From an uncultured Bacteroidales bacterium (GTDB taxonomy: Bacteria; Bacteroidota; Bacteroidia; Bacteroidales; P3), in NCBI GenBank assembly GCA_947303735.1, contig CAMYZD010000001.1:1-60303 (forward strand): a stretch of 60,303 nt of DNA. Direction: 5' to 3'. This document shows positions 927 through 50,934 of the stretch, piece after piece; the first letter of the stretch is position 1; every line of letters starts with the position of its first letter. The notes beneath the pieces were generated by a model. That model was given only the letters and a program-made list of their open reading frames with translations. It was not told where the DNA came from and did not search any database. A program made the position numbers and the translations under genes.

Positions 927-1748
927 ATGGGCAACCCAATCTTCAACCGCACCGAACTGCTCGTAGGCTCCGACGCCATGCAGCGTATTGCTGAGGCGCG
1001 TGTCATCCTTTTCGGTGTTGGCGGAGTGGGTTCGTGGTGTGCCGAAAGCCTTGTGCGCAGTGGCATTCAGCACCTCACCATTGTCGATTCCGACCGCGTC
1101 TGTGTCACCAATATCAACCGCCAACTGATGGCCACCTCCCACACGGTAGGGGAGGTCAAGGTCGATGCTCTTCGCGAACGTCTGTTGCAAATCAATCCTC
1201 GGGCCGATGTCTGTGCCTTGCAGGAAATATACAGTCGCGACACCCACGACTCGTTCCTCCTAGAGCAATACGACTATATAGTTGATGCCATCGACAGCCT
1301 CAGCAACAAGCTCGAGCTCATAGTCCGTGCCACCGACAAGTCTCTGGCTCGCGATGGGCGTTACCCCATCTTCTTCAGTTCGATGGGAGCGGCGTTGAAG
1401 ATGGACCCCACTCAGATTCGGGTCTCCGAGTTTTGGGAAGTCGACGGCTGTCCCTTGGCGGCCGCCCTCCGTCGTCGGATGCGCCACCTACACCGTTTCC
1501 CTGGGCGCAAATTCCGCTGTGTGTGGAGTCCCGAGGTGCTATCCAACAAAGGGCAGGTGCAAGGCTGCGGTACGGCTGCGTGCCTCTGCCCGAAAAATAC
1601 CGCCGCAGGCGTGCGTCCTGATCTCGACCGACATGAGTGGTGCAGCTCTAAGGCGCAGATCAACGGTTCCATGGCCCACATCACCGCCATCATGGGCTTC
1701 ACCCTCTCGGGCCTCATCCTCCAGCACCTGACCCGTCCTACTCAATAA
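927..1748 (+). CDS. tcdA: tRNA threonylcarbamoyladenosine dehydratase (ThiF/HesA E1-like family)
   Basis: 273 aa. Has the Rossmann motif ILFGVGGVGSW and the DxD/NINRQ region typical of TcdA/CsdL. Confidence 0.85.
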   Translation: MGNPIFNRTELLVGSDAMQRIAEARVILFGVGGVGSWCAESLVRSGIQHLTIVDSDRVCVTNINRQLMATSHTVGEVKVDALRERLLQINPRADVCALQEIYSRDTHDSFLLEQYDYIVDAIDSLSNKLELIVRATDKSLARDGRYPIFFSSMGAALKMDPTQIRVSEFWEVDGCPLAAALRRRMRHLHRFPGRKFRCVWSPEVLSNKGQVQGCGTAACLCPKNTAAGVRPDLDRHEWCSSKAQINGSMAHITAIMGFTLSGLILQHLTRPTQ

Positions 1749-1765
1749 AGCAGCATTAACACACG

Positions 1766-3061
1766 ATGAATATAGAACAACTCTACCAAACCTATCTCCA
1801 GTCGCGCCGTGTCACCACCGACTCGCGGCAGATTACTCCCGGATGCCTCTTCTTTGCCTTCCGGGGAGCTACTTTTGATGGCAACGCCTTTGCGCCCCAG
1901 GCCTTGGAGCAGGGTGCCGCGCTCTGTGTCATCAGCGACCCACAATATAAGGTCGACGACCGCTGTGTGGTAGTCGACGATGTGCTTGCCACTCTCCAGC
2001 AGCTGGCAGCCCACCACCGTCGCCAGCTCACTGTCCCCGTCATTGGCATCACAGGCACCAACGGAAAGACCACTACCAAGGAGCTGGTCCACGCCGTCCT
2101 CGCCCGTCGTTACCGCACGCATGCCACCACGGGCAATTTCAACAACCACCTCGGGGTGCCGCTGACGTTACTTTCTATCCCCGCTGACACGCAGATAGCC
2201 ATCGTTGAGATGGGTGCCAACCACCCTGGAGAGATAGAGGCGCTATGCCGCATTGCCGACCCCGATTTTGGCCTCATCACCAATGTGGGTCGTGCCCATT
2301 TGGAGGGTTTCGGCAGTTTTGAGGGGGTCGTTCATACCAAGACCGAACTCTACCGCCATCTGGCTGCCAAGCACGGCTCCGCTTTTGTCAATGCCGATAA
2401 TGACATCCTCATCCAGCAGGCCGACCTGTGTCATCTGTCAGCGCACACCTATGGCTCAGTCGAGAAGGCGCAGGTGCGTGGACATTTGGTAGGTTCCGAC
2501 CCGTACATGAAGTTCTATGTCGAGGAAGGCGACAACGTCTACACCATCCAGTCGCAGCTGCTGGGCAACTACAATTTCGACAATGCCATGGCGGCCGTGG
2601 CCGTAGGGCGGCATTTCCGAGTCGACCTGTGGGATATCAAAGAGGCCATAGAGCAATACGCTCCCTCCAACCGTCGCTCCCAATACAAGGAAACCGGGCG
2701 CAACACACTCTTTCTCGACTGCTACAATGCCAACCCCTCCAGCATGAAGGTGGCGTTGGACAACCTGCAGTCGCTGCCCAAGGAGCACAAAGTGGCCATG
2801 ATGGGCGGCATGAGGGAACTAGGCGATGCAAGCCAGGCCGAACATGAAACCATCGTGAACCGCCTGCTAAGCTGCCCCGACATCGAGGCAGTGTTGGTAG
2901 GGCCTGAGTTTGCCTTTGCGGCCGACAATGCCTCGCTGCAATGGTTCCCCGATGCCGATGCGGCGGTGGCTTATTTCGCTGCCCATCCTCTCAGTGGCGC
3001 CACCATCCTCCTCAAAGGCTCCAATGGTGAACAAATGTGGAAACTCGAGCCGGTACTCTAA
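1766..3061 (+). CDS. murF: UDP-N-acetylmuramoyl-tripeptide--D-alanyl-D-alanine ligase
   Basis: 431 aa. Has the Mur ligase P-loop GITGTNGKTTTKEL, plus VEMGANHPGEI and the NANPSSM motif. Confidence 0.92.
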   Translation: MNIEQLYQTYLQSRRVTTDSRQITPGCLFFAFRGATFDGNAFAPQALEQGAALCVISDPQYKVDDRCVVVDDVLATLQQLAAHHRRQLTVPVIGITGTNGKTTTKELVHAVLARRYRTHATTGNFNNHLGVPLTLLSIPADTQIAIVEMGANHPGEIEALCRIADPDFGLITNVGRAHLEGFGSFEGVVHTKTELYRHLAAKHGSAFVNADNDILIQQADLCHLSAHTYGSVEKAQVRGHLVGSDPYMKFYVEEGDNVYTIQSQLLGNYNFDNAMAAVAVGRHFRVDLWDIKEAIEQYAPSNRRSQYKETGRNTLFLDCYNANPSSMKVALDNLQSLPKEHKVAMMGGMRELGDASQAEHETIVNRLLSCPDIEAVLVGPEFAFAADNASLQWFPDADAAVAYFAAHPLSGATILLKGSNGEQMWKLEPVL

Positions 3062-3088
3062 TTCCATATCACTGTCTTCCCCCTTTTT

Positions 3089-3132
3089 CTCTTCGCCTGT
3101 TCAAAAAGTGAAAGGGCGAAGAGTTGCTTTTA
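3089..3132 (+). terminator. Possible intrinsic terminator after murF
   Basis: The 9-bp arms ctcttcgcc (3089-3097) and ggcgaagag (3115-3123) are followed by ttgctttta. The loop is long (17 nt). Confidence 0.4.
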
Positions 3133-3298
3133 TCAATGTCTTGGGTATGGTTAGTTATTGATTGATATATAGTGTGTTATGTATTGTTTTTCGCTGATGT
3201 ATGCGAATAAGTAGGGGCAATGAATCAAAGGAGGAACGGAGGAAGGGTATAGGCAGGATGGGGTGAATGTGGAGTGAAAGATTGAGGTTGGGGGCTTG

Positions 3299-3356
3299 AA
3301 AAAAGGATTGCGGTGCCGTCAGGGTGAGCTTGAGCTATGAAGGACGGCACCGCAAT
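3299..3356 (-). terminator. Intrinsic terminator of the M56/TonB gene
   Basis: A perfect 14-bp stem pairs attgcggtgccgtc (3307-3320) with gacggcaccgcaat (3343-3356). On the minus strand it is followed by CC-TTTTTT (plus-strand A-run 3299-3304). Confidence 0.6.
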
Positions 3357-3372
3357 AGGTGAAGATGATGGT

Positions 3373-4905
3373 CTATTTCAGCATGAATTTAATGGGTATC
3401 TGGAATCTTGACCGCGTAGGTTTGCCCTTGAAGCGTGCGGGCTTCCATTGAGGCATCGCCTTGATAACGCGCAGAGCCTCTTCGTCGCATCCGCCGCCTA
3501 TTCCTCGAAATAGCGTAACGTCACCAATGTTGCCGTCAGGCTCAACAATAAACTGCACAAACACCCTGCCCTCAACCCCGTCGGTCTTGGCTTGTTCGGG
3601 ATAGACAATCGACTGGGCAATAAAGTTGCCCATTGCCTCGAAACCTCCGGGGAATTCAGCAAGTTCGATAGGGCTATTATCCTCCTTGTTAAACCAGTCC
3701 AAAATGTCGTCTGCATCATTCCAAGCCACTTGATACCAATTAACTGAGCTGTCGCTAAGATTCATCATAGCGGTAACCCGACTTGACTTCGCCACAGTTT
3801 CGTGTATATTGATATTAAAGCGGACAGCCTCGGCAGAATCGGCAAACTCTTTGTGTTCGCCAACAGAGTCGAGGGGGATAATAACCCCCATAAACTCACG
3901 CTCCACCAACTTGCCGTCACGGTAAGTTTCGGTGAAGGGTTGCACGAGGTAGGTGCCGTCGGGGATGGTGGCCTGCTCTTGAGTAGGCTCTTGGTTCTTG
4001 CAATTGGCAAACAGCAGCAAGGCTGCCACTGGCAAGGCTGACAATGCCTTGACCCACCCTCTGTGGGATTTAGGTTGATTCATCATGGTAATACGGTTTT
4101 TTATTGTTGAAAAATGGAAATTATTCACTATTGGACTGTATTTCATGCCTGTGGCCTGCTTGAAGAGAAGTTGTAGGTAATGGCTGTATGTCTCCTCGTT
4201 GCCTTGGCGAAGCACTGCCTCATCGGCCAAGTATTCGTGTATGGTGCTCAGTTCGCGCACATATAGCCAGGCAAATGGGTTGAACCAAAGCAGGCAGCGT
4301 ACCAACTGCACAAACAAGGTGTCCCAACTGTGGCATTGTCGCACATGGGCCAGTTCGTGGGCTAGCACTTGGACAGACTCCTCGTAGGTAAGGCCTTGAC
4401 GATTGATTGCTACGTGGTTGAAGAATGAGAAGGATGAATCTATATTATCGTCGTCCGCCACGTAGTAGTGCCTTTGGCTGGAGCCGGAGTTGTACGATTG
4501 CGCTGAGAAGGAAAAAAGGTGCAGTTTTCGCCAGGTGGCGATGTACCTTGCTGCCAATAGGAGGAGAGATAATGCAAATCCTGCCCAATAGATTAGAGCC
4601 ATTATCTGCCAAGGGTCGATGCTGTTGGTGTTGGGAAGGCCGGTGGCAGCCTCTCTTTGTGTCGGGGAGGTAAGGGGCGTCTCCTCACCCTGTATGGGCA
4701 GAGAAATTAGGTACCCGTTTCCTGACACAGAGTAGCTCGTGACGGGTACGGTGGGGTGAACAAGGGGAATCAACAGGCTCAAGGCAAGGGTTGTCAGTAG
4801 GAAGAACCTGTTTAACCGTAGGCAGTGCTCTTTATGTAGCAGCAGCCTGTACAAGCCCCAGAACAGTGCTGTTCCGATAACGACAAAAAGTAGGTAGCGT
4901 GTCAT
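3373..4905 (-). CDS. BlaR1-like M56 family membrane metalloprotease/sensor fused to a C-terminal TonB domain
   Basis: 510 aa. Has N-terminal TM helices, the HEXXH motif HELAHVRQCH, and a C-terminal TonB_C-like segment (EFPGG...GVEGRVFVQFIVEPDGNIGDVTLFRG). Confidence 0.85.
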   Translation of the reverse strand: MTRYLLFVVIGTALFWGLYRLLLHKEHCLRLNRFFLLTTLALSLLIPLVHPTVPVTSYSVSGNGYLISLPIQGEETPLTSPTQREAATGLPNTNSIDPWQIMALIYWAGFALSLLLLAARYIATWRKLHLFSFSAQSYNSGSSQRHYYVADDDNIDSSFSFFNHVAINRQGLTYEESVQVLAHELAHVRQCHSWDTLFVQLVRCLLWFNPFAWLYVRELSTIHEYLADEAVLRQGNEETYSHYLQLLFKQATGMKYSPIVNNFHFSTIKNRITMMNQPKSHRGWVKALSALPVAALLLFANCKNQEPTQEQATIPDGTYLVQPFTETYRDGKLVEREFMGVIIPLDSVGEHKEFADSAEAVRFNINIHETVAKSSRVTAMMNLSDSSVNWYQVAWNDADDILDWFNKEDNSPIELAEFPGGFEAMGNFIAQSIVYPEQAKTDGVEGRVFVQFIVEPDGNIGDVTLFRGIGGGCDEEALRVIKAMPQWKPARFKGKPTRSRFQIPIKFMLK

Positions 4906-7987: not shown

Positions 7988-9556
7988 ATGAAAAAGAAAA
8001 CAATATTGATGGCTGTTATGGCTTTAGCCACAGCATCCTTTATAGGCTGTAAGCCTGACGAAGAGACACCCCAATTGCCGGAAGAGTTGGCCGAAGAGAC
8101 TTATGCGGGAGGTCGACTTGGCACTACATTCAACCAGTCGGCATCGGCATTTGAAGACCCTACGCCGGCAGTTGAGCAGGCTGGCATGGTGAATGCCTTC
8201 AAATATGGTGAGTTCTTCTTTGAACATACTGTCACACAAAACAACCCACCTTTCAATGGGTTGGGTCCTCTCTATGTGCGTTCGTCATGTGAAGCCTGTC
8301 ATCCAGGGTATGGACATGGACGTCGCATGGAACGCTATCGCGCCGACGACTGGGCTAACGGCTACCTGCTGGTAGTGTACAACAAAACTACCGATGCCTA
8401 TGAGACCTCGGTGGCGGGCATGCCACAGACCAAGGCCGTAGCCCCCTTCAAGCCTTCGATTGACGAGGAGAAAATTAATATCAACTGGCTCAGCTATACC
8501 GACGAATGGGGCAACCGCTTCCCCGACGGCGAGACCTACAACCTCATCTATCCCGAGGTGACAATACCCGAGGATGCTTTCTATGCCCCCCTCTCGGTGC
8601 CATATAGCCAGCTGGCTTTCCGCTTGGAGAGCACCATCGGCATTTATGGAACAGGACTGCTGGACGCCATTCCCGACGACTCGCTCAAAGCGCAGTATCA
8701 GAAAGAATATGATGCAGGTGCCGACCTCAATCCCGCTATTTGGGCTGGGCACGATTGGGCATCGCTCTATGGCAATACCAACCACCCCAAACGTTTCACC
8801 TATGCTCTCAGCCGTGGGCCTCTGCAGGATGCTGCCGGAGCCAATGCCATTTGGAACATCACTAACGTGAACCGTAGCGACCGTAGAAGCCATTACCTGA
8901 GTCTGAACAAGAGTATCTATGCCACTACGGCATCGGAAGACCCAGAGGTGCAGGCTCAATTCTACCACTATTTCCCACAATGGAACAAGTCGGGCGACCC
9001 CCGCACAGATATTTATAACTATCTGATGTGTGATACGCTGCCAATAGAGATGAGCGATCAGGACTATGTCAACTTCATGGTGTGGCACCGCGGACTGGCA
9101 GTACCAGCAGCTCGAAACTTGAGTGACACTACAGTGCAACGCGGGCGCAAGCTGTTTCGCGACATGGGATGCGCCACCTGTCATCGTCCCAGTTGGACCA
9201 CGGGCCCGGACAACTACAGCGACCCCAACGGATTTTTTGCAGATGGGGATTCCCGTCTGCCCCGTTACCCGTATCAGAAGATATGGCCCTATACCGACAT
9301 GGTGCAGCATCGGCTGCACATGGTCAACGACATCCGCACCGGCTGGTGCCGTACCACACCGCTGTGGGGTAGAGGTTTGTCGCCCATCTGTAGCGGCCAT
9401 AGCGACCGTCTGCACGACTGTCGTGCCCGTAACGTGGTGGAGGCTATCATGTGGCACGGATGCCCCAATAGTGATGCCCGTTGGACAGTGGAAAAATTCC
9501 GCAAGCTGTCAAAGAGCGACCGCGACGCAGTGGTCAAGTTTATTAATGCTATTTAA
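7988..9556 (+). CDS. Di-haem cytochrome c peroxidase-like protein (DUF1111-type), lipoprotein
   Basis: 522 aa with the lipobox SFIGC. Carries two CXXCH haem-binding motifs (SSCEACHPG and MGCATCHRP). It sits beside an imelysin gene, as in known imelysin/DUF1111 loci. Confidence 0.8.
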   Translation: MKKKTILMAVMALATASFIGCKPDEETPQLPEELAEETYAGGRLGTTFNQSASAFEDPTPAVEQAGMVNAFKYGEFFFEHTVTQNNPPFNGLGPLYVRSSCEACHPGYGHGRRMERYRADDWANGYLLVVYNKTTDAYETSVAGMPQTKAVAPFKPSIDEEKININWLSYTDEWGNRFPDGETYNLIYPEVTIPEDAFYAPLSVPYSQLAFRLESTIGIYGTGLLDAIPDDSLKAQYQKEYDAGADLNPAIWAGHDWASLYGNTNHPKRFTYALSRGPLQDAAGANAIWNITNVNRSDRRSHYLSLNKSIYATTASEDPEVQAQFYHYFPQWNKSGDPRTDIYNYLMCDTLPIEMSDQDYVNFMVWHRGLAVPAARNLSDTTVQRGRKLFRDMGCATCHRPSWTTGPDNYSDPNGFFADGDSRLPRYPYQKIWPYTDMVQHRLHMVNDIRTGWCRTTPLWGRGLSPICSGHSDRLHDCRARNVVEAIMWHGCPNSDARWTVEKFRKLSKSDRDAVVKFINAI

Positions 9557-9600
9557 CTAGTTGTACTAGTAGCACTAGTATTACTAGCCATACTAGAGAT
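9556..9600. repeat. Tandem 9-bp array, 5 units of ACTAGTNNN
   Basis: actagttgt actagtagc actagtatt actagccat actagagat. The array begins on the last base of the TAA stop (9554-9556) and ends within the ATG of the next gene (9599-9601). Confidence 0.95.
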
Positions 9601-11722
9601 GAAGAGAATCAATGTTTTTCTCATGGTGTTGGTGGTGGCAGTGCTCGCCACCAGCACCATTGTTAGTAAGATAAATGGAGGCGATGAGGCTTCCGCCAGC
9701 ATATATAATTCTTGGTGGTTTATCCTGCTCTTGGCACTAGTAGGAGTGGGGGCTGTGGCTACTATATTCCGTGAAAAGATGTGGCAAGTGCCATATAGGC
9801 TGTTGTTGTACAGCTCGGTAGTGGTCATCCTGTTGGGAGGAGGACTCACGACCTGGACGGGTAGCCACGGCAGCATGACCTTGCAGCCAGGTGTGCCATG
9901 CAGCACTTTCGCTAATGAAGATGGCCAGGAGTGGGCGCTGCCCTTTGCGCTCACGTTAGACCGCTTTGAGGTGGTGACCTATCCAGGGTCGCATGCTCCG
10001 ATGGACTTCGTGAGCCATATAACCGCTGGGGACGAGAAGGCGGTTATCTCGATGAACCATATCTATAAACATGGTGGTTATCGATTTTATCAAGAAGACT
10101 ACGACGAGAAGGGTAACTCTACGTTGAGCGTGGCGCACGACCCTATTGGGATTGCCGTCACTTATGCAGGCTATCTGTTGTTGCTGGTGGGATTGATTGT
10201 CATGTTTCTATCCCCCAAGTCGCATTTTAAAAGGCTGCTCAAAGGATTGCCGGTGGTGGCATTGCTTATGATGGGTTGCGTGGCATCGGCAAAACCTACG
10301 ACGCTGCCCCGCCATACGGCCGACCAATTAGGACGAGTGCAGGTGTTGTATAAGGGAAGGGTATGCCCATTGCAGACCTTTGCCAAAGACTTTACGACCA
10401 AGCTCTATGGGAAAGCTACCTATCAAGGCCTTTCGCCTGAGCAGGTGCTTAGTGGATGGATGTTCTACAACAGCGAATGGTGTGACGAACCCATGATAAA
10501 AATCAAAGGAGCCGAACTGCGCCATCAACTGGGCATGGAGGGTCGCTATACCTCATTTAGCAATTTGCAGGCCCACGAGGGATTGCTGGACAGTCAACCT
10601 GCGACTAAAGAATTTGCTGCAGCCAACGAGAAGAAGAATTTGGTGCAGATGGTGATGAACAGCAAGCTGTTGAAGATATACCCCTTGGCAGATTCAACGG
10701 GAACTATTGGCTGGTACTCACAGAACGACCCGCTGCCCATCGGAGTGGACGATGATGCCTATTTGTTTGTCCGCAAACAATTGGGTTATTGTCAGGAGCT
10801 GGTGGTCAGAGGGGATTATGCCACATTGGACACTGTGTTTGCCAAGACTTGCAAATATCAACAGAAACAGGCATCTGAGGTACTGCCTTCGCCAGTACGT
10901 TTTCGGGCTGAGAGGCTCTATAATGCCCTCACGACAGGCAGATGGCTGGCAATGCTGTCGGTCATGCTAGGACTTCTGTCATTTGCCCTGACGATATCGA
11001 CTACAGGTAGTAAGAAAGACCATTCGAAACTCTCAGTGTTTAATTCCCGAGTCGCTGTAGCCGCGGTGGCGCTGCTGACGTGCTTCCTACTACTAATCAT
11101 AGGACTGCGCTGGGTGGCAGGTGGACATGTGCCTATGGCAGGCGGATTTGACAGCATGAACTTAATGTCGGTCACCTTAGGATTGGTAGCCCTCAGTATG
11201 GCTAGACGTCATCGGGCTGCTCCTTCTGTAGCGCTACTTGCCATGGGATTCTGCCAGTTGGTGGCAATGATGAGCGGCTCGAATCCTCCAATCACCCACC
11301 TAATGCCTGTGCTTAATTCTCCATTACTGACGTTGCATGTGACGGTGATAATGATAGCCTATGCATTGTTTCTCTTTGTGATGCTCAGCAGCTTGGCTGC
11401 CCTCTTTCTTCCGGCCCAGCGCGTAAGACTGGAACGCTCTAATTTACTGATGCTCTATCCAGCCGTGGCGTTACTGTCGATTGGTATCGTTATAGGTGCA
11501 GTGTGGGCCAACATCTCATGGGGCAATTACTGGTCGTGGGATCCGAAAGAAGTGTGGGCTCTGATTACGCTGATAGTCTATCTTTATCCTCTTTATCTGG
11601 CTCGCAAGGAAAACCATTCACGGTTTGGATTCCATTTATACTGCGTGTTGGCGATATTGAGTGTTGCCATTACCTACTTCGGAGTCAACTTAATACTTGG
11701 AGGCATCCACTCCTACGGTTGA
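9599..11722 (+). CDS. ccsBA: Fused system II cytochrome c synthase (ResB/CcsB-CcsA, CcsBA type)
   Basis: 707 aa polytopic membrane protein. The C-terminal half carries the Trp-rich WWD motif WGNYWSWDPKEVWA. Confidence 0.85.
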   Translation: MKRINVFLMVLVVAVLATSTIVSKINGGDEASASIYNSWWFILLLALVGVGAVATIFREKMWQVPYRLLLYSSVVVILLGGGLTTWTGSHGSMTLQPGVPCSTFANEDGQEWALPFALTLDRFEVVTYPGSHAPMDFVSHITAGDEKAVISMNHIYKHGGYRFYQEDYDEKGNSTLSVAHDPIGIAVTYAGYLLLLVGLIVMFLSPKSHFKRLLKGLPVVALLMMGCVASAKPTTLPRHTADQLGRVQVLYKGRVCPLQTFAKDFTTKLYGKATYQGLSPEQVLSGWMFYNSEWCDEPMIKIKGAELRHQLGMEGRYTSFSNLQAHEGLLDSQPATKEFAAANEKKNLVQMVMNSKLLKIYPLADSTGTIGWYSQNDPLPIGVDDDAYLFVRKQLGYCQELVVRGDYATLDTVFAKTCKYQQKQASEVLPSPVRFRAERLYNALTTGRWLAMLSVMLGLLSFALTISTTGSKKDHSKLSVFNSRVAVAAVALLTCFLLLIIGLRWVAGGHVPMAGGFDSMNLMSVTLGLVALSMARRHRAAPSVALLAMGFCQLVAMMSGSNPPITHLMPVLNSPLLTLHVTVIMIAYALFLFVMLSSLAALFLPAQRVRLERSNLLMLYPAVALLSIGIVIGAVWANISWGNYWSWDPKEVWALITLIVYLYPLYLARKENHSRFGFHLYCVLAILSVAITYFGVNLILGGIHSYG

Positions 11723-14974: not shown

Positions 14975-15048
14975 TCGGGGCGAAAAGACTCGAACTTTCG
15001 ACCCCTTGCACCCCATGCAAGTGCGCTAGCCAACTGCGCCACGCCCCG
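14975..15048 (-). tRNA. tRNA-Pro (anticodon GGG)
   Basis: Hand-folded cloverleaf. Acceptor CGGGGCG/CGCCCCG, D arm GCGC-AGTTGGCTA-GCGC, anticodon arm CTTGC-ATGGGGT-GCAAG (anticodon GGG at 34-36), T arm GAAAG-TTCGAGT-CTTTT, discriminator A. CCA is not encoded. Confidence 0.9.
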
Positions 15049-25145: not shown

Positions 25146-25171
25146 ATGAAATTGAAAATCGAAAATAGAAA
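25146..25171. repeat. Degenerate heptad array (TTGAAAA family, about 4 units)
   Basis: atgaaa ttgaaaa tcgaaaa tagaaa. It is followed by the perfect 10-bp palindrome attgcgcaat (25174-25183). Confidence 0.6.
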
Positions 25172-25228: not shown

Positions 25229-25274
25229 CGACACCCACTCGGGTGCATCTATAAATGCACCCGAGTGGGTGTCG
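25229..25274. terminator. Perfect 20-bp inverted repeat (hairpin) downstream of T9SS cargo gene A
   Basis: cgacacccactcgggtgcat (25229-25248), 6-nt loop, atgcacccgagtgggtgtcg (25255-25274). The T-rich run tcttttctttt follows on the plus strand, not on the strand of the upstream gene. Confidence 0.6.
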
Positions 25275-25303
25275 TCTTTTCTTTTAGAGGAGGGGAGGCG
25301 TTG

Positions 25304-26890
25304 TCACTCCACCGCCAACTTTGCCGTGGCTGAGCCCTGCGGGGTGGTGAGCGTGACGAAGTAGACACTCGCCGGCAGGGCGGTGATATCCACTTGCTGG
25401 TTGTCCGACCTTAGCGGTTCACTCAGTACCAGTCTGCCAGCGGCATCGGTGATGGCAATGGTGCCGCCACCGACCGTTGCCAAGCCCTCCGACAAGATGG
25501 TGACGCTTCCATGTGCCGGATTGGGCACGAGGGTTATGCGCAGCCTTCCGCCCAGCTCCTGCATGCCCACCTCACTGGTGTCCGGGTCCTCAAGAGTGAA
25601 CTGCACAGGGTGTCCCCACCTGCCCCACACTAGTGTGTCGTGCAGGGCACACTCGTGGCGGCATCTGGCGCGGAGCGTAATGGTGTATAGGATGCTGTCT
25701 CTCAGCCCTGTCAGGTCGTAAGGGTTGCTGCTGGGCGTAAGGTCGAAAGCGGCAGTGTCGTCCCGTCGCACATGCAGTTGGAAGTCTATCTGCCCCGGCA
25801 CGGTGTCCCATGCCAGCCTCACACCGTGCGGCAGTAGGCTTTCAATGCGCAGTCCCTCCGCCTGGGCGCAACTCATCACGTCGTTTGCCGCGATGCGTAC
25901 GCTGTCGGGCATGCCGTACTGCTTCATCGTTGGGCAGTAGGCACTCACGAAGTAGGTGTACACCACGTCGGGGTCTATGCCGCTGATGCAGTACGAGGTC
26001 GTGCTGATGCTGTCCACCTCCACCACGACCCCCTCGCTGTAAACTCCGCAGCCGTACTTAAACCCGCTGGGTCCGTATTCTAGGTGGTAGAACGCCGCCG
26101 AGTCCACTGGTGGCCACGAAATCCATACCCGCGTGCCGTCCACGCTGTCCACCCGCAACTTTTCCACCTTGGGGCATGCTCTGTGTCGGATGGGGTATAT
26201 GGGTCCGGGCTGGGTAGCAAATTGGAAGCAGGTGTACGCACAATCTACCCAAAAACTTCTACTATACTTCCTGTCACCAGGCCATATCATATGCATATAG
26301 GCATTCCATTCGTCCCCGTGGTCATATTCAACTCCTGCTATTTTCGGCGTGGGGAGAAAACCCCAAGTCACAAATACAGAGTCGTCGGGTCCGAACACAT
26401 GCTCGCGCGAGAACAGCCTTTCATACACCGGCACGGTGTCGTGCATATATAGATAGGGTATGAACGACGTATCTACGGCGTGGTATACAAATTGCTTATA
26501 AGGCATTGCGCAGTCCACTATTATTGAGTCTATAAGGATTGGCACATTGGTGCCGCGTGGCACATTATAGAGATACAGCCCTGTGGGTATCGATTTGTCC
26601 CTGGCAGTCCCTGACTTATGTCTGACCACAGAGTCGGCAGTGAATGCTATTCCGTATATGTGTTCTGTTGAATCCACGGCGAAAATCATTCCATGTTGAA
26701 CGCAATCCTTAGGTCCGGCAAGGATGGTTGTGAAACACAGGGCTGACCCCATGTCGCCACAGGGTGTCAATGGCGGATTAGGTTCGTACCTCACAGCCAT
26801 ATAGTTCGAGTCGCCATAGTTGACCACTTGCCCGTATGTCGGTACCAAAATGCCAAACAAGGCTATAAACAATAAAATAATTTTTTTCAT
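25304..26890 (-). CDS. T9SS-sorted secreted protein with two Fn3-like domains, paralog A
   Basis: 528 aa with a signal peptide. The C-terminal Por_Secre_tail-like segment is LVPNPAHGSVTI...IAITDAAGRLV...SVYFVTLTTPQGSATAKLAVE. It aligns along its length with the 38730-40262 product. Confidence 0.8.
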   Translation of the reverse strand: MKKIILLFIALFGILVPTYGQVVNYGDSNYMAVRYEPNPPLTPCGDMGSALCFTTILAGPKDCVQHGMIFAVDSTEHIYGIAFTADSVVRHKSGTARDKSIPTGLYLYNVPRGTNVPILIDSIIVDCAMPYKQFVYHAVDTSFIPYLYMHDTVPVYERLFSREHVFGPDDSVFVTWGFLPTPKIAGVEYDHGDEWNAYMHMIWPGDRKYSRSFWVDCAYTCFQFATQPGPIYPIRHRACPKVEKLRVDSVDGTRVWISWPPVDSAAFYHLEYGPSGFKYGCGVYSEGVVVEVDSISTTSYCISGIDPDVVYTYFVSAYCPTMKQYGMPDSVRIAANDVMSCAQAEGLRIESLLPHGVRLAWDTVPGQIDFQLHVRRDDTAAFDLTPSSNPYDLTGLRDSILYTITLRARCRHECALHDTLVWGRWGHPVQFTLEDPDTSEVGMQELGGRLRITLVPNPAHGSVTILSEGLATVGGGTIAITDAAGRLVLSEPLRSDNQQVDITALPASVYFVTLTTPQGSATAKLAVE

Positions 26891-40340: not shown

Positions 40341-42398
40341 ATGAAAAAAATTGCCATAATTGTTTGTTTTATAGGACTGGTTGTGATGGATGGGAGTGTA
40401 GAAGCCCAGGGGCTGTTTGGCGGCAGGAAGCGCAATAAGGCACGCATCGAGCGTGCGGCCAAGAAAAAAACGGGAACACTGCCCATAATGGTGAAGGGTG
40501 AAAAGTTTGAGATGGTGTTGGTGCGAGGCGGCTCGTATATGATGGGGTGTGACCCCGAGTTTTGGGGCACTTCGGTAAGCCCATATTCAAATAGATTCTT
40601 TTATGGCGTAAACAAGGGTACTTCGGTGCTGGACAGCAAGGAGAGGGGCAAGAACGACGAGGTGCCCCGTCACGGCGTGTCCGTGGGCAGTTTCTATATG
40701 GGGCGCTACGAGGTGACGCAGGCGTTGTGGAAGGCTGTGATGGGCTACAACCCGTCGAACTTTGTGGGCGACGAGCTGCCTGTGGAGCAGGTGAGTTTCG
40801 ATGAGGTGCAGACCTTTATCACGCGGCTGCGGGAGTTGACGGGGCTGCCTTTCCGTCTGCCTACGGAGGCGGAGTGGGAGTATGCTGCCCGAGGGGGTGC
40901 GGAGGCGAAGAGCACAACGTATGCAGGGTCGAACGAGTTGATGCATGTGTCGTGGACACAGCTTAATAGCGGCGATTCTACCCACATAGTGGGAGGATTG
41001 GTGCCCAACGAGTTGGGATTGTATGATATGACGGGCAATGTGTGGGAGTGGTGCAGCGACTGGTATGCCGACGACACTTACGCATGGGATGTGGCATCGC
41101 ACTATGACGTTCCCGCCAGAGTGAAAAGCCGACAGGATTTATATCAGTATTGGGTGGATATAGGCGAGGAGCGTAATATCTTGGAGAGCATCGACGAAAC
41201 CGTCTCGCCCAAGGGACCCACCAGCGGGACGACAAAGGTGGGCCGAGGAGGCTCGTGGGCTGATGTGAAGGAGGATGTGAGGGTGTCGTATCGCAACTTT
41301 TGGCAGCCTAATATGCGGTTGAGTGTGTTGGGATTTAGGCTGGCGTTGTCGGCCGACAGTGTGCCTGCGTCGGGGTGGATGCCTAACCAGTATGTGTTGG
41401 ATTCGTTGGTGGGAGGGAAGGCATACTCGTCGATGACATCGGAGGGTGTCGCACGGCAGGCCAATGGTGTGTTGGAGGGGGCGTTCAGCGTGTCGCCTAC
41501 ACGGCAGGTGCGTTTCTCGAAGGGCAACCTGCAGTACAATGCGGTGGCAGACCAGTGGCGTTTTGCCGAAAGGCAGTACGACATTATCGGATTGGACAAT
41601 GTGGAATACGGTAAGCATTATGCGGGGTGGATTGACTTGTTTTCCTTTGGCACGAGTGGCTATCACAATAAGTCGCCCTACTATTATTCGGCTCAAAATG
41701 CCAGCTATGGCAATGGCAACCGCAATATCGACAGGACGAGCTATGATTGGGGCGTTTACAACGCTATCAGCAATGGCGGCAACCGTGTGGGGCAGTGGAG
41801 GACGCTGTCGGTGAACGAGTGGGCGTATATGTTGATGCGTCGGCCTAATGCGGAGAAGCTGATGTCGCCCGCCTCTATAAACGGCCACCAAGGAATGCTG
41901 CTGCTGCCCGACGACTGGCTTGAAACGGGAGGCGACACACTGCGTGAAGGGGTGGTGTATCTGTTCAGTACAAAGCAGTGGGGTGTGATGGAACGTGCAG
42001 GGGCGGTGTTTTTGCCGTGTGCGGGGTATGCTAAGATGATGTGCTACTATTATGCTGTGCCATTGCCTGGGCAGGTGGAGACGTTGATACCCATGTTCAA
42101 CACTGGGCTAGGACATAGTCTGGGTAGGCTTGCGTCTGCCAGCATGATGCCGGAAGAGGCAGAGCAGGCCGAAGGGGGAGGACTCATGAATGACACCCAG
42201 GCAAGGTGGGAGGCGTTGAAAAACTACCGTCCGCCGGTGGAGAGTGATGAGGGTTTAGGGTATTATTGGACAACTATCCATTACAACGAGGAGACGGCAC
42301 TGGGCTATTGTTTCACTTCGGAAAAGCGGGGCTATATCATACCTTTAGAGCGGCTGACGCGTATGTCGGTGCGCCTGGTGCAGGACGTGGGGAATTGA
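40341..42398 (+). CDS. Secreted FGE/SUMF1-domain protein with a lectin-like C-terminal half, paralog B
   Basis: 685 aa and collinear with paralog A. The two share the identical block GLVPNELGLYDMTGNVWEWCSDWY and also RLPTEAEWEYAARGG, GRGGSW, GFRLALS, GYYWTTIHY and SVRLVQDV. Confidence 0.8.
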   Translation: MKKIAIIVCFIGLVVMDGSVEAQGLFGGRKRNKARIERAAKKKTGTLPIMVKGEKFEMVLVRGGSYMMGCDPEFWGTSVSPYSNRFFYGVNKGTSVLDSKERGKNDEVPRHGVSVGSFYMGRYEVTQALWKAVMGYNPSNFVGDELPVEQVSFDEVQTFITRLRELTGLPFRLPTEAEWEYAARGGAEAKSTTYAGSNELMHVSWTQLNSGDSTHIVGGLVPNELGLYDMTGNVWEWCSDWYADDTYAWDVASHYDVPARVKSRQDLYQYWVDIGEERNILESIDETVSPKGPTSGTTKVGRGGSWADVKEDVRVSYRNFWQPNMRLSVLGFRLALSADSVPASGWMPNQYVLDSLVGGKAYSSMTSEGVARQANGVLEGAFSVSPTRQVRFSKGNLQYNAVADQWRFAERQYDIIGLDNVEYGKHYAGWIDLFSFGTSGYHNKSPYYYSAQNASYGNGNRNIDRTSYDWGVYNAISNGGNRVGQWRTLSVNEWAYMLMRRPNAEKLMSPASINGHQGMLLLPDDWLETGGDTLREGVVYLFSTKQWGVMERAGAVFLPCAGYAKMMCYYYAVPLPGQVETLIPMFNTGLGHSLGRLASASMMPEEAEQAEGGGLMNDTQARWEALKNYRPPVESDEGLGYYWTTIHYNEETALGYCFTSEKRGYIIPLERLTRMSVRLVQDVGN

Positions 42399-42422
42399 AA
42401 AGTGAAAATTGAAAATTGAAAA
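42395..42422 (+). repeat. Heptad array, 4 units (ttgaaaa gtgaaaa ttgaaaa ttgaaaa)
   Basis: Exact 7-bp phasing. The first unit contains the TGA stop (42396-42398) of the FGE paralog B gene. Confidence 0.95.
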
Positions 42423-42435
42423 ATGGCTGGCGCGG

Positions 42436-42498
42436 TCATTTGTCATTTGTCAATTCACTATTCACTATTCACTAATCACGATTCACATTTCACTTTTT
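42436..42498 (-). repeat. Heptad array, 9 units (plus strand: tcatttg tcatttg tcaattc actattc actattc actaatc acgattc acatttc acttttt)
   Basis: Exact 7-bp phasing. Read on the minus strand the units are GTGAAWW/TTGACAA-like, so this array is in inverted orientation relative to 42395-42422. Confidence 0.9.
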
Positions 42499-42502
42499 TT
42501 CG

Positions 42503-42510
42503 TATATTTG
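42503..42510 (+). promoter_or_regulatory. Candidate -7 box (TATATTTG) for the GH3 gene
   Basis: 26 nt upstream of the ATG at 42536. Confidence 0.45.
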
Positions 42511-42535: not shown

Positions 42536-44656
42536 ATGAAGAAAGGTTTGATTATTATCGTATTGGCTGTTTTGCTGGGTGGGGTTACTCCCGTATTGGG
42601 ACAGGATTTCCCCTTTCAAGATACGCGCTTGTCGGTTGCCGAGAGGGTGGAAGACTTGCTGTCGCGGCTGACGTTGGACGAGAAGTTGTCGCTGATGCAA
42701 CACCGCAATCCAGCCATCCCTTCGCTGGGGTTGCCCGCCTACAGTTGGTGGAACGAGGCCCTGCACGGCGTGGGGCGCAACGGACTGGCCACGGTGTGGC
42801 CGATGCCCATCGCGCTGGCAGCTACGTTCGACGACTGGATGGTGCGGCAGGTGTTTGCCGACGTGACATTCGAGGCGCGGTGGAAGTATCTGGAAGCGGC
42901 ACACGACACTGCTTCGACTATGGCAAAAGAACCTACCGACTATACGGGACTTACCTTTTTTACGCCCAATATCAATATCTTCCGTGACCCTCGCTGGGGG
43001 CGCGGCATGGAGACTTACGGTGAGGATCCCTTTCTGACGGCACGCATGGGCTTGGCGTGTGTGAATGGCCTGCAACATAACTACGACTTTTCGTTGACGG
43101 GAAAGGTGGATATGGAGCATTTGACGGCGGCAGCATGCCTGAAGCATTTGGCAGTGCACAGCGGCCCCGAGGGGGTGAGACACGAGTTTGACTCACGGGT
43201 GAGTCCGCGCGACCTGTGGACTACCTATCTCCCTGCTTTTGAATATATCATCAAGAATAGCGACGTGCAGCAGGTGATGTGCGGCTACAACCGGTTGAAC
43301 GGTGAGCCATGCTGTACCAATAAAGAGTTGCTGGTCGACATATTGCGCAACAAGTGGCATTACGACGGCTTGTTGGTGACAGACTGCTGGGCGCTGAACG
43401 ATTGTTGGGAGCGCGACACCGTTATTCCCCGCCACAAGACCCATGCCTCGGCAGCCCTCACGGCAGGCGACGCCTTCGGCAGCGAGGTGGACTTGGAGTG
43501 TGGCAGCGGGTTGGCGGCACTAAAGACGGCGGTAGACTCAGGCTATGTGCGAGAGGAGGTGATAAACCAGCATGTCCGCCGCATACTGAGCACTAGGTTG
43601 CGGGTGATGGAATTGAGTCCCACGGGTGATATTGTCCCAAGTGGTATCGACCCAATGTATGTTGCATCGCAGAGCTTGGTGCTACTAAAGAACGAGAATC
43701 ATTTGTTGCCCCTTCAGCAGGGGACGACCAAGATATATTTGGCAGGACCCAATGCCGAGGATACCTTGATGCCGCTGGGTAACTATAATGGCACTCCGGC
43801 CCATACGGTGAGCCTCCGTGAAGGATTGGGCGAGCTTTTTCAGTTGGTCGACAATCCGAAACAGGCCGACGTGATAGTGTATGCTGGAGGATTGAACCCT
43901 CAGTTGGAAGGGGAGGAGTTGCCTGTGGATATGCCAGGTTTCTACAAAGGCGACCGCACCCGAATAGAGTTGCCTAACGACCAGCAGAAGGAGATACGAC
44001 GTTTGCGGCGGAAACATAAACCTATGGTGCTGCTTCTGTGTAGTGGTAGCGCGGTGGCTTTGGACAAACATGCGCTGCGGTGCGACGCCATCATGGAGTG
44101 CTGGTATGGAGGCGAGGCGATGGGTATGGCCGTGGCCGCCTCTTTGGCTGGCTATTATGATAATTTCGGACGCCTGCCCGTCACATTCTATAAAAGTACT
44201 CAGCAACTACCGTCCTTCGACAGTTACGACATGCAAGGACGCACCTACCGCTATATGACCCAGGCACCGCTGTATTCTTTTGGCTACGGATTGGATTATG
44301 CTTCCTATAGGATAGGAAAGGTGCAGTATGAGGGTGGCAAGGTGTGTGGCGAGGTGAAAATGGTGGAGTCGCCCCGTGTGAAACCTCACGGGTCGAGTCA
44401 TACGGTGGTGGAGGTCTATCTTCGGGGAGCAGAGGGTAGCGGCGAACCTCTCAAGCAGCTGGTCGGTTTCCAGAAGGTGGCTGTCGGAGAGAATGGCACT
44501 CAGCAGTTTGAGATAGCTATCGATCCCTATTGGCTGCGGATGTTCGATGAGGAAACACAAGAGATTGTTCCGATACCTGCAGGCAGCGAGATTACGCTGC
44601 TGGTAGGGTTCAGCAGCGCGGACAAAGACTTGGTTGAATTAAAAATTAAATTATAA
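42536..44656 (+). CDS. Glycoside hydrolase family 3 (beta-glucosidase/beta-xylosidase-like)
   Basis: 706 aa with a signal peptide. Has GH3 N-terminal-domain motifs (NIFRDPRWGRGMETYGEDP, KHLAVHSGPE, VTDCWAL) and the C-terminal sandwich/Fn3-like region. Confidence 0.9.
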   Translation: MKKGLIIIVLAVLLGGVTPVLGQDFPFQDTRLSVAERVEDLLSRLTLDEKLSLMQHRNPAIPSLGLPAYSWWNEALHGVGRNGLATVWPMPIALAATFDDWMVRQVFADVTFEARWKYLEAAHDTASTMAKEPTDYTGLTFFTPNINIFRDPRWGRGMETYGEDPFLTARMGLACVNGLQHNYDFSLTGKVDMEHLTAAACLKHLAVHSGPEGVRHEFDSRVSPRDLWTTYLPAFEYIIKNSDVQQVMCGYNRLNGEPCCTNKELLVDILRNKWHYDGLLVTDCWALNDCWERDTVIPRHKTHASAALTAGDAFGSEVDLECGSGLAALKTAVDSGYVREEVINQHVRRILSTRLRVMELSPTGDIVPSGIDPMYVASQSLVLLKNENHLLPLQQGTTKIYLAGPNAEDTLMPLGNYNGTPAHTVSLREGLGELFQLVDNPKQADVIVYAGGLNPQLEGEELPVDMPGFYKGDRTRIELPNDQQKEIRRLRRKHKPMVLLLCSGSAVALDKHALRCDAIMECWYGGEAMGMAVAASLAGYYDNFGRLPVTFYKSTQQLPSFDSYDMQGRTYRYMTQAPLYSFGYGLDYASYRIGKVQYEGGKVCGEVKMVESPRVKPHGSSHTVVEVYLRGAEGSGEPLKQLVGFQKVAVGENGTQQFEIAIDPYWLRMFDEETQEIVPIPAGSEITLLVGFSSADKDLVELKIKL

Positions 44657-44692
44657 ACTAGTCGGACTAGTCCGACCAGTCCGACTAGTCTG
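44657..44692. repeat. Tandem 9-bp array, 4 units (actagtcgg actagtccg accagtccg actagtctg)
   Basis: It starts on the base after the TAA stop (44654-44656). It contains the perfect 16-bp palindrome gtcggactagtccgac (44661-44676) and is followed by A7. Confidence 0.95.
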
Positions 44693-44710
44693 ACAAAAAA
44701 ACAACACAAC

Positions 44711-45436
44711 ATGAAAAAACAAGATTGGTTAGTTATCTTAATCGTGGTGGTCGTGTTGGCCCCGTTCTTTATTCCTGCCACAGGATTCTTCGAGTGGTTC
44801 AAGGCATCCACGGCGGCACACCCTTACATCATGGCGTTCTTCAAGTTTGCCATCCTTGCCACCTTTGGCGAGATGCTGGCACTTCGCATCCGCGAGGGCG
44901 TGTACAACAAGAAAGGCTTCGGTGTGCTGCCCCGCATGATGGTGTGGGGTTTCTTGGGCATGTGCATCGCTATGGCGATGGTCATCTTCAAGAGTGGCGT
45001 GCCTACGTTCCTTGGTACCGTGGCGGATGCCATCAAGGGCTATAGCGGACATGTGCCTGCCTACGCCGCCATCTTCAAGGCTACGGAGCTGACATGGGGC
45101 AAGGTGGGTATCGCCTTTGCCGTCAGTGTGCTGATGAATACTATCTTCGCGCCGGTGATGATGACGTTCCACAAGTGTACCGACATCCACATCTTGGAGA
45201 ACGGTGGCACCGTGCGCGGACTGCTGCGCCCGATGAAAATGCGTGAGATATTTGCCACCAAGGTTAACTGGGATGTGCAGTGGAACGTGGTGTTCAAGAA
45301 GACCATACCCCTCTTCTGGTTCCCAGCACACACCATCACCTTTATCCTGCCTCCGACCTTCCAAGTGCTGTTTGCCGCTCTGCTGGGTGTGGCACTGGGT
45401 CTGATATTGGCTTTAGCTGGAGGAAGTAAGAAATGA
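44711..45436 (+). CDS. Hypothetical polytopic membrane protein
   Basis: 241 aa with about 6 hydrophobic segments and no recognised motif. Its stop overlaps the next start (ATGA at 45433-45436). Confidence 0.65.
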   Translation: MKKQDWLVILIVVVVLAPFFIPATGFFEWFKASTAAHPYIMAFFKFAILATFGEMLALRIREGVYNKKGFGVLPRMMVWGFLGMCIAMAMVIFKSGVPTFLGTVADAIKGYSGHVPAYAAIFKATELTWGKVGIAFAVSVLMNTIFAPVMMTFHKCTDIHILENGGTVRGLLRPMKMREIFATKVNWDVQWNVVFKKTIPLFWFPAHTITFILPPTFQVLFAALLGVALGLILALAGGSKK

Positions 45437-49664: not shown

Positions 49665-49699
49665 TCAATTCTCAATTTTCAATTTTCAATTCTCAATTC
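49665..49699 (-). repeat. Heptad array, 5 units (minus strand: gaattga gaattga aaattga aaattga gaattga; TTGARAA family)
   Basis: Exact 7-bp phasing. It begins 3 nt after the TAA stop of sdaA (49703-49705). Confidence 0.95.
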
Positions 49700-50893: not shown

Positions 50894-50926
50894 TTGATGG
50901 TATTCAGTATAAGAAATTACAAATTG

Positions 50927-50934
50927 CAAAAGTA
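50927..50934 (-). promoter_or_regulatory. Candidate -7 box (TACTTTTG) for sdaA
   Basis: Plus-strand caaaagta, 34 nt upstream of the GTG at 50893. Confidence 0.4.

Follow-up and report, generated by a model that had tools for sequence, protein, structure and literature searches.

Phased arrays of the ACTAGT palindrome form a lineage-specific repeat family in ruminant-gut Bacteroidales

Introduction

Why should a palindrome centred on CTAG, a tetranucleotide that its genome otherwise avoids, recur at an exact 9-bp period between and inside ordinary genes? The question is raised by a 60,303-nt stretch of an uncultured Bacteroidales bacterium (contig CAMYZD010000001.1 of assembly GCA_947303735.1; hereafter the window), which carries four arrays of the hexamer NCTAGN separated by 3-nt spacers. 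We found that these loci are members of a lineage-specific interspersed repeat family of ruminant-gut Bacteroidales, which we name phased palindrome arrays: the SpeI-type palindrome ACTAGT, with CTAG invariant, once per 9 bp with free 3-nt spacers. The family is apparently undescribed. A search of the literature on ACTAGT or CTAG, Prevotella, palindromes, heptanucleotides and methylomes found no description of it, and in Rfam the arrays match no family, the sole match in the window being a tRNA. The arrays are genuine and strongly non-random, and the family to which they belong is large and lineage-specific. The mechanism is only partly resolved: origin by duplication, placement limited by tolerance and constraint on the core at the DNA level are shown, whereas a symmetric reader is inferred. 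The reading that we favour, at a probability of about 40%, is that arrays originate as 9-bp tandem duplications, persist where they are harmless, and have their core kept by a two-fold-symmetric, sequence-specific reader of duplex DNA.

Four arrays with an exact 9-bp period

The original prediction, made from the letters of the window, had reported four loci of phased NCTAGN units. All four are present, with an exact 9-bp period, at the coordinates it gave:

Array 1, 9556-9600, non-coding, five units: ACTAGTTGT ACTAGTAGC ACTAGTATT ACTAGCCAT ACTAGAGAT
Array 2, 44657-44692, non-coding, four units, the third with a degenerate core (ACCAGT): ACTAGTCGG ACTAGTCCG ACCAGTCCG ACTAGTCTG
Array 3, 45444-45488, plus strand, coding in the frame CTA-GTN-NNN, five units: ACTAGTATT TCTAGTACT GCTAGTATC ACTAGTTAG ACTAGAAGC
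Array 4, 55266-55319, minus strand, coding in the frame ACT-AGT-NNN, six units: TCTAGAGAT ACTAGTTTT ACTAGTATT GCTAGTCTG TCTAGCAAT ACTAGTGTT

As had been claimed, the hexamer and its period are conserved and the spacers are not, and the same holds in relatives. Because the spacers differ, matches reach only 67-86% when Tandem Repeats Finder reports each array at period 9.

The window contains 90 CTAG against 142 expected from a second-order Markov estimate, and 23 of the 90 lie inside the four arrays. Outside them are 67 CTAG and three ACTAGT. Related blocks hold 269 CTAG in 706 kb outside arrays, which is about a tenth of the frequency at equal base use (roughly 10-fold depletion), so the avoidance of CTAG that had been supposed is borne out. 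When CTAG pairs no more than 60 bp apart were considered, 38 of 42 were spaced at multiples of 9 (9, 18, 27, 36 or 45 bp). The pattern CTAG-N5-CTAG-N5-CTAG occurs 10 times in the window and not once in 100 dinucleotide-preserving shuffles, which gives the enrichment that had been predicted. No isolated two-unit runs exist in the window; the sole two-unit count comes from the first two intact cores of array 2. The strict 9-bp phasing is present in non-coding arrays too. Since CTAG is depleted about 10-fold outside arrays, a chance origin is excluded.

We considered whether the arrays could be an assembly or cloning artefact, since the last letters of array 1 directly 5' of the ATG (TACTAGAG, 9591-9598) are identical to the BioBrick RFC10 assembly scar. 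Independent assemblies, built with different assemblers, contain the same junctions, and about 90 metagenome-assembled genomes (MAGs) carry members of the family. An artefact is refuted. Because this very junction recurs in independent rumen metagenome assemblies, the identity with the scar is a coincidence.

The arrays belong to a family in ruminant-gut Bacteroidales

We scanned one genome per species (185,579 genomes, 596 Gb) for ACTAGT-N3-ACTAGT-N3-ACTAGT and found at least 119 loci. About 9 matches would be expected by chance, by our own estimate (596 Gb / 4^18) and not a tool's. Among the matches listed, 92 of 119 lie in ruminant-gut Bacteroidales MAGs, so that related genomes share the period, as the original prediction had anticipated. 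These Bacteroidales, again among the matches listed, are Prevotella, Prevotellaceae, Paludibacteraceae and unclassified members, nearly all from the guts of ruminants or other herbivores. The window's own nearest relatives come from rumen and herbivore-gut metagenomes.

The Bacteroidales loci differ in kind from the remaining matches. Among the matches listed, they have 3-16 units (mean 5.0) with CTAG nearly invariant and dissimilar spacers, and the two spacers of the seed pattern are identical in just 5 of 100 arrays. The corresponding figures are 100 of 123 for viral arrays and 15 of 27 for those of other phyla, with mean unit numbers of 3.3 and 3.5. The fraction of distinct units in CTAG arrays is 0.96, while the viral and other-phylum matches are mostly short perfect repeats. 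Viral contigs (L210-L329 and L330 onward) carry perfect 9-bp repeats such as ACTAGTGGT or GGACTAGAN, which look like coding repeats of the collagen-like Gly-X-Y type (ACTAGTGGT would read Gly-Thr-Ser) and serve as a negative control. Phage membership in the family was rejected, as both three- and five-unit patterns in IMG/VR return mostly perfect Gly-X-Y repeats, a different kind of sequence.

The CTAG core is conserved at the nucleotide level

Two of the window arrays are coding, in the open frames that had been proposed, Leu-Val-x and Thr-Ser-x. In a 401-aa protein, the signal peptide (MRKR-LVFLVLLVSLVRLEA-QEG) owes its h-region and cleavage region to array 3. Array 4 encodes NTSIARQTSNTSKTSISR in the second ATPase domain of a fused Opp/Dpp-type ABC ATPase, where the peptide is a loop insertion of 12-13 residues relative to the solved Mycobacterium tuberculosis homologue 8j5q.

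Across 11 orthologous lineages, array 3 has 53 core codons, 50 of them for Leu; CTA accounts for 47, and the others are TTA (3), TTT (2) and ATA (1). Among all Leu codons of the window the share of CTA is 10%. At free positions of the same orthologues the Leu codons are mixed (CTA, CTG, TTA, TTG, CTT), and the third position of Val and the x codons vary. For array 4 all four shared CTAGs are intact in three species (the window, L120 and L121) with changed spacers, and the encoded pairs vary among TS, AS, AR, SS and TR. Since CTA is fixed at synonymous sites and residues vary where CTAG does not, it is the DNA and not the peptide that is conserved. This bears directly on the idea that the arrays are selected for their Leu-Val-x or Thr-Ser-x peptides. 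Two window arrays are indeed translated with the frame preserved. However, the period is the same in the roughly 40% of arrays that do not code, the codon is fixed despite synonymous alternatives, and the residues change around an unchanged CTAG; protein-level selection is refuted.

In interior units outside the seed pattern, the base before CTAG is A in 76%, T in 9%, G in 8% and C in 7%, and the base after it is T in 71%, A and C in 11% each and G in 7%. Because the minor flank bases are mirror-symmetric, ACTAGT is a true palindromic consensus. The rarest flanks are C before and G after CTAG.

Spacers within an array are 44% identical, compared with 28% for random pairs, and equally so at lags of one to three units. 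With spacers so diverged, intact runs of at least five cores are unexpected under neutral divergence, yet such runs are usual. Either constraint or drive acts on the cores, or the spacers are unlike from an array's birth through some unspecified process. Constraint is favoured because young arrays with like spacers exist. Nucleotide-level conservation of the CTAG core thus far exceeds both that of the spacers and what the protein requires, amid general loss of CTAG. Something in these cells probably reads or propagates the palindrome.

Arrays lie only where an in-frame 9-bp insert is harmless

Placement was examined in 767 kb of array-bearing Bacteroidales blocks together with the window, taking genes by a longest open reading frame (ORF) heuristic and not from a gene finder. 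In this set 65 arrays lie in coding sequence (CDS), 42 in intergenic gaps and 4 at block edges; about 60% are inside coding sequence and about 40% are non-coding. Since 90% of the DNA is coding, the gaps are enriched in arrays about six-fold per base.

None of the 42 intergenic arrays is in a divergent gap, though such gaps account for 15% of all gaps and 21% of intergenic bp (P about 1e-3 to 5e-5). The arrays lie between co-directional genes in 34 cases and between convergent ones in 8 (34, 9 and 0 divergent in a hand tally), and the non-coding ones are always downstream of a gene. For the co-directional cases, the median distance from the upstream stop to the array is 3.5 nt, with 23 of 34 arrays starting within 10 nt, and several arrays supply that stop with their own TAG. 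The array ends a median of 22 nt upstream of the next start, with an A-rich leader in between. This upholds the predicted bias towards gene 3' ends.

The genes at the window arrays are as follows:

7988-9556, plus strand, DHOR di-haem oxidoreductase (peroxidase), upstream of array 1
9599-11722, plus strand, ResB/CcsA cytochrome c biogenesis protein, downstream of array 1, its ATG overlapping the last array unit
42536-44656, plus strand, GH3 glycosidase, upstream of array 2
44711-45436, plus strand, 241-aa membrane protein, between arrays 2 and 3
45433-46638, plus strand, 401-aa secreted or outer-membrane protein, its signal peptide encoded by array 3
54861-56582, minus strand, fused ABC ATPase with array 4 and, in its inter-domain linker, a 7-bp repeat (55693-55724)

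Array 1 makes up the entire gap from the peroxidase TAA (9554-9556), whose last A it shares, to the ResB/CcsA ATG (9599). Array 2 abuts the TAA of the GH3 gene (44654-44656) and is followed by a 21-nt A-rich leader and the ATG at 44711. Array 3 starts 8 nt past the upstream TGA (45434-45436). The three distances from stop codons had thus been described correctly. Array 3, however, is not intergenic: the ATG of the 401-aa gene, at 45433, overlaps the upstream stop as ATGA, so that the array lies within the CDS and encodes the signal peptide. The coding nature of array 3, the large ruminant-gut Bacteroidales family and other tandem repeats of 7-11 bp at like sites go beyond what the original prediction contained.

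Among intragenic arrays the TAG frame is absent. The Thr-Ser frame predominates, in linkers and loops, and the Leu-Val frame is used by 11 arrays, 7 of which begin 11-26 nt past the start codon, in signal-peptide h-regions. Arrays therefore survive only where an in-frame 9-bp insert is harmless: in gaps after stop codons, in h-regions as Leu-Val, and in surface loops or linkers as Thr-Ser.

Two further explanations of the intergenic arrays were tried and rejected. As former signal peptides they should be in Leu-Val phase with the downstream ATG, and 4 of 21 are (hand tally), which is unremarkable. As back-up stops they should favour the TAG frame of the upstream ORF, and the three frames are used 13, 10 and 7 times (hand tally), which is equally unremarkable.

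Arrays are born by tandem duplication and turn over

Comparison of orthologues reveals how arrays change. At array 1, a 99% identical relative (L206) differs by a single spacer transition (C>T), an 87% relative (L207) has 4 units in place of 5 and one 10-bp step, and in an 84% relative (L209) the cores have decayed to CTAG/CTAA/CAAG/CCAG/CTAG. Orthologues of array 4 at about 70% identity have a short loop without the insertion. At 84-86% identity, L120 and L121 carry 4 units whose spacers differ from those of the window, and L122 has a low-complexity loop free of CTAG. Copies from the same species show a 15-nt internal deletion (L124) and decay of CTAG to ATAA or CTAA (L125). The unit-number polymorphism that had been predicted is therefore present at array 4 (6, 4, 4 and 0 units, plus the 15-nt deletion), at array 1 (5 versus 4) and at the orthologous junctions of L018 and L083 (4 versus 7). 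In L125 a reverse transcriptase gene (RVT_1) and a HepT/MNT toxin-antitoxin pair (1228-3642) adjoin the block syntenic with the window; no link to the arrays was seen.

At the array 2 junction, L126 and L127 have flanks 98-99% identical to the window, yet these enclose another 5-unit array and another leader, with the two CDSs as exact boundaries. When window positions 44620-44710 are compared with L126/L127 1400-1500, the replaced segment comprises the final two codons, a run of heptamers, the array and its leader. The replacement could reflect recombination with a diverged allele or very fast local turnover.

Near-identical spacers are found in array 2 (CGG/CCG/CCG/CTG) and in L003, L046, L057 and L075, and an 18-bp higher-order period in L035 and L107. 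Its near-identical spacers suggest that array 2 is young. Because young arrays have like spacers and some an 18-bp higher order, we conclude that arrays are born by tandem duplication of a 9-bp unit, gain and lose units, and erode. The erosion is visible at array ends: one period beyond intact runs, 29% of positions hold ghost cores that match CTAG at 3 of 4 letters, against 5% in the background. Most of these are CCAG or CTGG (26 of 64), a T-to-C change at the central TA. Ghost cores, rare flanks and the depletion of CTAG together resemble what very-short-patch conversion of CTAGG to CCAGG of the Vsr/Dcm type would produce.

Such turnover is what a neutral minisatellite would display, that is, 9-bp slippage products read by nothing, with the core kept by its slippability and by detection bias. 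The original prediction had named a slippage-prone minisatellite among its possible roles. Two adjacent cores form a 6-bp stem with a minimal 3-nt loop, so that 6 + 3 = 9 is the tightest hairpin, and the predicted folds are favourable. Orthologue unit numbers differ (6/4/4, 5/4 and 4/7), 18-bp duplications and young arrays with like spacers occur, array ends erode, and other tandem repeats of 7-11 bp occupy the same junctions and the same signal peptide. However, slippage copies the spacer along with the core, yet the spacers are near-random. Array 3 is stable in 11 lineages with all-different spacers and CTA held at synonymous sites, two-unit runs are rare relative to runs of 4-6 units, and the genome-wide trend is loss of CTAG. 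The gain and loss of units and the 18-bp duplications thus stand, and they leave the conserved core unexplained. As a full account a neutral minisatellite is unlikely, though it deserves to be taken seriously.

No support for pairing between particular units

Since the hexamer is self-complementary, we examined whether the arrays could act as RNA, with ACUAGU hairpins serving as mRNA stabilisers, processing sites or translation-tuning spacers. The window arrays have predicted fold energies of -13.6 to -22.4 kcal/mol (z from -1 to -6), and the 16-unit array of L035 reaches -56 kcal/mol. Intergenic arrays occur in transcribed contexts only (none of 42 in divergent gaps) and directly after stop codons, as do repetitive extragenic palindromes (REP). 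These folds are favourable, though only because every core can pair with every other, and two of the window arrays fold at best about 1-2 standard deviations (sd) from shuffles.

Across 97 arrays, permuted spacers show more complementarity than mirrored ones do, and where the flanks of neighbouring hexamers deviate they complement each other in 2 of 109 cases, which does not exceed chance. We therefore dropped selection for extended hairpins as a feature of the family. The missing covariation would not be fatal to a role in RNA, because any core pairs with any other and the consensus alone preserves pairing. About 60% of arrays lie inside CDS with no evident structural role there, the flank preferences are strand-symmetric, and the arrays have neither a U-tract nor an Rfam match. 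Flanks that degenerate independently would fit a consensus read by a protein and not the pairing of particular units. On balance an RNA element is rather improbable.

Individual arrays do contain longer inverted repeats. Array 4 has a perfect 14-bp one on the minus strand (55274-55306; ACTAGTATTGCTAG ... CTAGCAATACTAGT, -22.4 kcal/mol), for which L120 has the same stem spacers, ATT/AAT, but another loop spacer. Array 2 has a perfect 12-bp one (44661-44694, -20.7 kcal/mol). Intrinsic terminators, which have a G+C-rich stem-loop and then a U-run, were rejected, the arrays being A/U-rich stems followed on the sense strand by A-rich leaders without a U-tract, and a terminator scan of 44400-45600, which covers arrays 2 and 3, found none at either array.

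A symmetric DNA-binding protein as the proposed reader

What, then, keeps the core? In the reading that we favour, arrays would start as 9-bp tandem duplications and then persist where they are harmless. A two-fold-symmetric, sequence-specific reader of duplex DNA would recognise each hexamer and so keep the core, and neighbouring readers would sit side by side at the 9-bp spacing, in the manner of ribbon-helix-helix (RHH) or small helix-turn-helix dimers. Such a reader is suggested by the strand-symmetric consensus, by the independent degeneration of half-sites and by a 9-bp phasing that is kept where no reading frame demands it. It would use the arrays as a genome-wide tag (for chromosome architecture, for identity or methylation, or for an uptake-type drive) and not as gene-specific operators. 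A tag is the most likely use because the arrays are dense (4 in 60 kb), unlinked to gene function and found inside CDS.

Arrays with this architecture are known as sites bound cooperatively by small dimeric repressors. The met-boxes of MetJ are 8-bp palindromes in 2-5 copies, TrpR recognises CTAG-centred ACTAGT half-sites 8 bp apart, and omega of pSM19035 binds 7-bp heptads in 7-10 copies; RHH dimers fit a footprint of 7-9 bp. All share with the present arrays contiguous short symmetric sites, a fixed period of 7-9 bp and a variable copy number (here 3-16), and the operator motif of TrpR is the very same ACTAGT/CTAG. The sites of MetJ, TrpR and omega, however, are in regulon promoters or plasmid centromeres and few per genome, whereas the present arrays are numerous, lie after stop codons or in CDS, and avoid divergent gaps. 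The likeness is one of architecture and not of membership.

An iteron-like array, as originally suggested, holds up in part. Iterons in the strict sense are excluded, as they are near-identical repeats of about 17-22 bp beside a rep gene or origin on a plasmid or phage, while here the units are 9 bp, the spacers free and the neighbours chromosomal housekeeping genes, with no rep gene in the window. An array of protein-read sites is the best inference. CRISPR was likewise rejected, since it has repeats of 23-55 bp and spacers of 21-72 bp, compared with a 6-bp core, 3-bp spacers, arrays of 36-54 bp and no cas gene in the window. The earlier judgement that CRISPR, REP and bacterial interspersed mosaic elements (BIME), insertion sequence (IS) ends and ordinary terminators do not fit is sustained throughout.

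Several points weigh against a protein reader. Pfam searches of about 40 window proteins found no restriction-modification, methyltransferase, nuclease, RHH, TrpR-like, RAYT/HUH or transposase gene, so that among the window proteins there is no candidate reader, methyltransferase or restriction gene. The arrays are in CDS and after stop codons, not in the promoter regions where known operator arrays lie, and their absence from divergent gaps may reflect merely the cost of disturbing promoters. The placement statistics rest on ORF-based heuristic gene calls. Some orthologous arrays decay freely (L209, L125, L122, L174), and this decay, together with the 29% of ghost cores, means that constraint on the core is not absolute. 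The complete replacement of the array 2 junction between strains 98-99% identical fits rapid mutational turnover or recombination as readily as it fits function. Finally, a molecular drive with no function for the host, such as biased uptake or conversion, would leave identical signatures.

This last possibility has a parallel in the uptake signal sequences (USS) of Pasteurellaceae and the DNA uptake sequences (DUS) of Neisseriaceae. Like the arrays, they are conserved at synonymous sites, keep to tolerated frames and variable protein regions, and have copies in downstream intergenic DNA, and drive is a plausible cause in both. Here the hexamer array would be an uptake- or conversion-type signal, spreading because DNA that carries it is favoured in uptake or copying, and settling where coding allows. 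Synonymous-site conservation, restriction to tolerated frames, placement after genes and occurrence across families of one habitat are all consistent with it, as is whole-allele replacement at the array 2 junction between near-identical strains. But known uptake sequences are dispersed as single copies or inverted pairs, are over-represented, and are neither arrays nor palindromic hexamers, whereas isolated ACTAGT and CTAG are depleted here. To our knowledge the competence of rumen Prevotella is not established, which also counts against drive. We regard it as a long shot.

A mobile origin was considered as well, in which each cycle of insertion and excision of a CTAG-specific element adds one unit, as a footprint or a cluster of targets. 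IS630-type elements insert at CTAG, and IS4/IS903-type elements (IS10, IS903) make 9-bp duplications, so that both the core and the increment match known sizes. Relatives contain a family of 9-bp arrays with a CTATAG core, and one junction in L014 (ACTAGCTAGT) resembles a fill-in product. However, no transposase adjoins any window array, no array was seen interrupted by an element, and a duplication or footprint would give fixed spacers and not free ones. Bacterial cut-and-paste excision also rarely leaves footprints. The micro-element footprint that had been listed among the possible origins gains no support from the window arrays, and this explanation is very improbable.

Comparison with other repeat classes places the family further. 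REP/BIME elements share high-copy interspersion, hairpin potential and a position after stop codons in co-directional or convergent gaps, being rare in divergent ones, but they are imperfect palindromes of 20-40 nt with a GTAG head, extragenic and mobilised by RAYT, while the present arrays are hexamers phased at 9 bp and also occur in genes. The highly iterated palindrome HIP1 of cyanobacteria (GCGATCGC) is likewise a lineage-specific short palindrome kept at the nucleotide level in coding and non-coding DNA; its copies are dispersed singly and over-represented, whereas here nearly all ACTAGT copies are in phased arrays and isolated ones are depleted. The short tandemly repeated repetitive (STRR) heptamers of cyanobacteria are also lineage-specific, short-period tandem arrays in intergenic DNA, but their units are near-identical and lack the design of core plus free spacer; the 7-bp repeats of the window do fit STRR. 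Rickettsia palindromic elements (RPE) and coding variable-number tandem repeats (VNTR) share an in-frame selfish or neutral repeat in tolerant parts of housekeeping proteins. RPE are single elements of 100-150 bp. VNTR share strain-polymorphic unit numbers, but their units are near-identical throughout, as in the viral ACTAGTGGT repeats, and here the hexamer alone is conserved.

A bolder version of the protein reader is tentative: ruminant-gut Bacteroidales may have an unrecognised system, in which a small symmetric protein that binds, modifies or takes up DNA would polymerise on 9-bp-phased ACTAGT, with sites that are needed or self-driving at high density on the chromosome. Pressure on the DNA would then write these sites into genes, and entire signal peptides (Leu-Val-x) and surface loops (Thr-Ser-x) of housekeeping proteins would be by-products of a genomic tag and not of selection on the protein. 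We consider this possible but doubtful.

The arrays would extend the short list of lineage-wide bacterial signatures (REP, HIP1, USS/DUS, STRR) by one repeat class, found in the group that dominates the bacteria of the rumen. They suggest a putative reader of ACTAGT in a DNA-binding, methylation/restriction or uptake system. They are also an instance of DNA-level constraint shaping protein, with signal peptides and loops built from a palindrome. Because unit number varies, they are ready markers for strain typing. Caution is needed in annotation, and in cloning with enzymes of the SpeI, XbaI and NheI type, in organisms that carry them. The sharp contrast between about 10-fold avoidance of CTAG and arrays of CTAG makes the question experimentally tractable.

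Other short tandem repeats share the same sites

Among the phased tetramers in about 370 kb of related DNA, collected through protein homology, CTAG at period 9 is the commonest, and it is the one with units almost all different. Other repeats occur beside it. At the same junctions and in the same signal peptide, relatives have 7-bp units (AATTGAA, GTTAAGA), 8-bp units (AAATTAAC), 9-bp units and 11-bp units with TGTACA. Because such repeats occupy the same sites, this lineage has a general tendency to short tandem duplication, and what sets the ACTAGT arrays apart is a conserved core with free spacers.

The signal peptide of the 401-aa protein is the clearest example. Across L128-L205 it is encoded by different 9-bp repeats: GGNCTNATN (LIGLIGLIG/LMGLMG), ACTATAGTN (with a CTATAG core), GTCGGACTA (VGLVGL), or a CTAG array. 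To judge from these sequences, short repeats have served more than once to rebuild the h-region. TGTACA recurs every 11 bp downstream of the 241-aa gene in relatives that lack the 401-aa gene. CTAGG recurs every 10 bp. These other phased palindrome arrays (TGTACA, CTAGG) are at L158 2250-2350, at about 2240-2300 in L188 and L192, and at about 1440-1480 in L183 and L191.

The window itself carries 7-bp arrays (AATTGAA/AATTGAG/TCAATTC, GTCATTT and ATTCACT) at 42393-42422, 42435-42494, 49665-49699, 55693-55724 and 25149-25171. The first unit at 42393 contains the TGA stop of the gene at 40341-42398, and the array at 49665 is 3 nt past the stop of the minus-strand gene at 49703-50929. The ATTCACT array ends about 10 nt upstream of the promoter box TATATTTG (42503-42510). 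In the ABC ATPase linker the array at 55693 encodes NSQFSTPNSQL, which reads NSQFSILNSQL in orthologues.

The window is otherwise an ordinary chromosomal stretch of Bacteroidota, with type IX secretion system (T9SS) sorting domains, the TAnnTTTG promoter box and housekeeping genes. Beneath a spurious 381-aa ORF, the minus strand encodes a tRNA (14975-15048), and a long perfect hairpin (25230-25275) is found downstream of the gene at 25304-26890. The divergent gap upstream of the gene for ribosomal protein S16 contains 2.6 copies of an 11-bp repeat, TTCCCACATGC (50983-51011), and an 18/36-bp repeat (51609-51679) encodes the Ala/Glu/Lys-rich C-terminal tail of S16.

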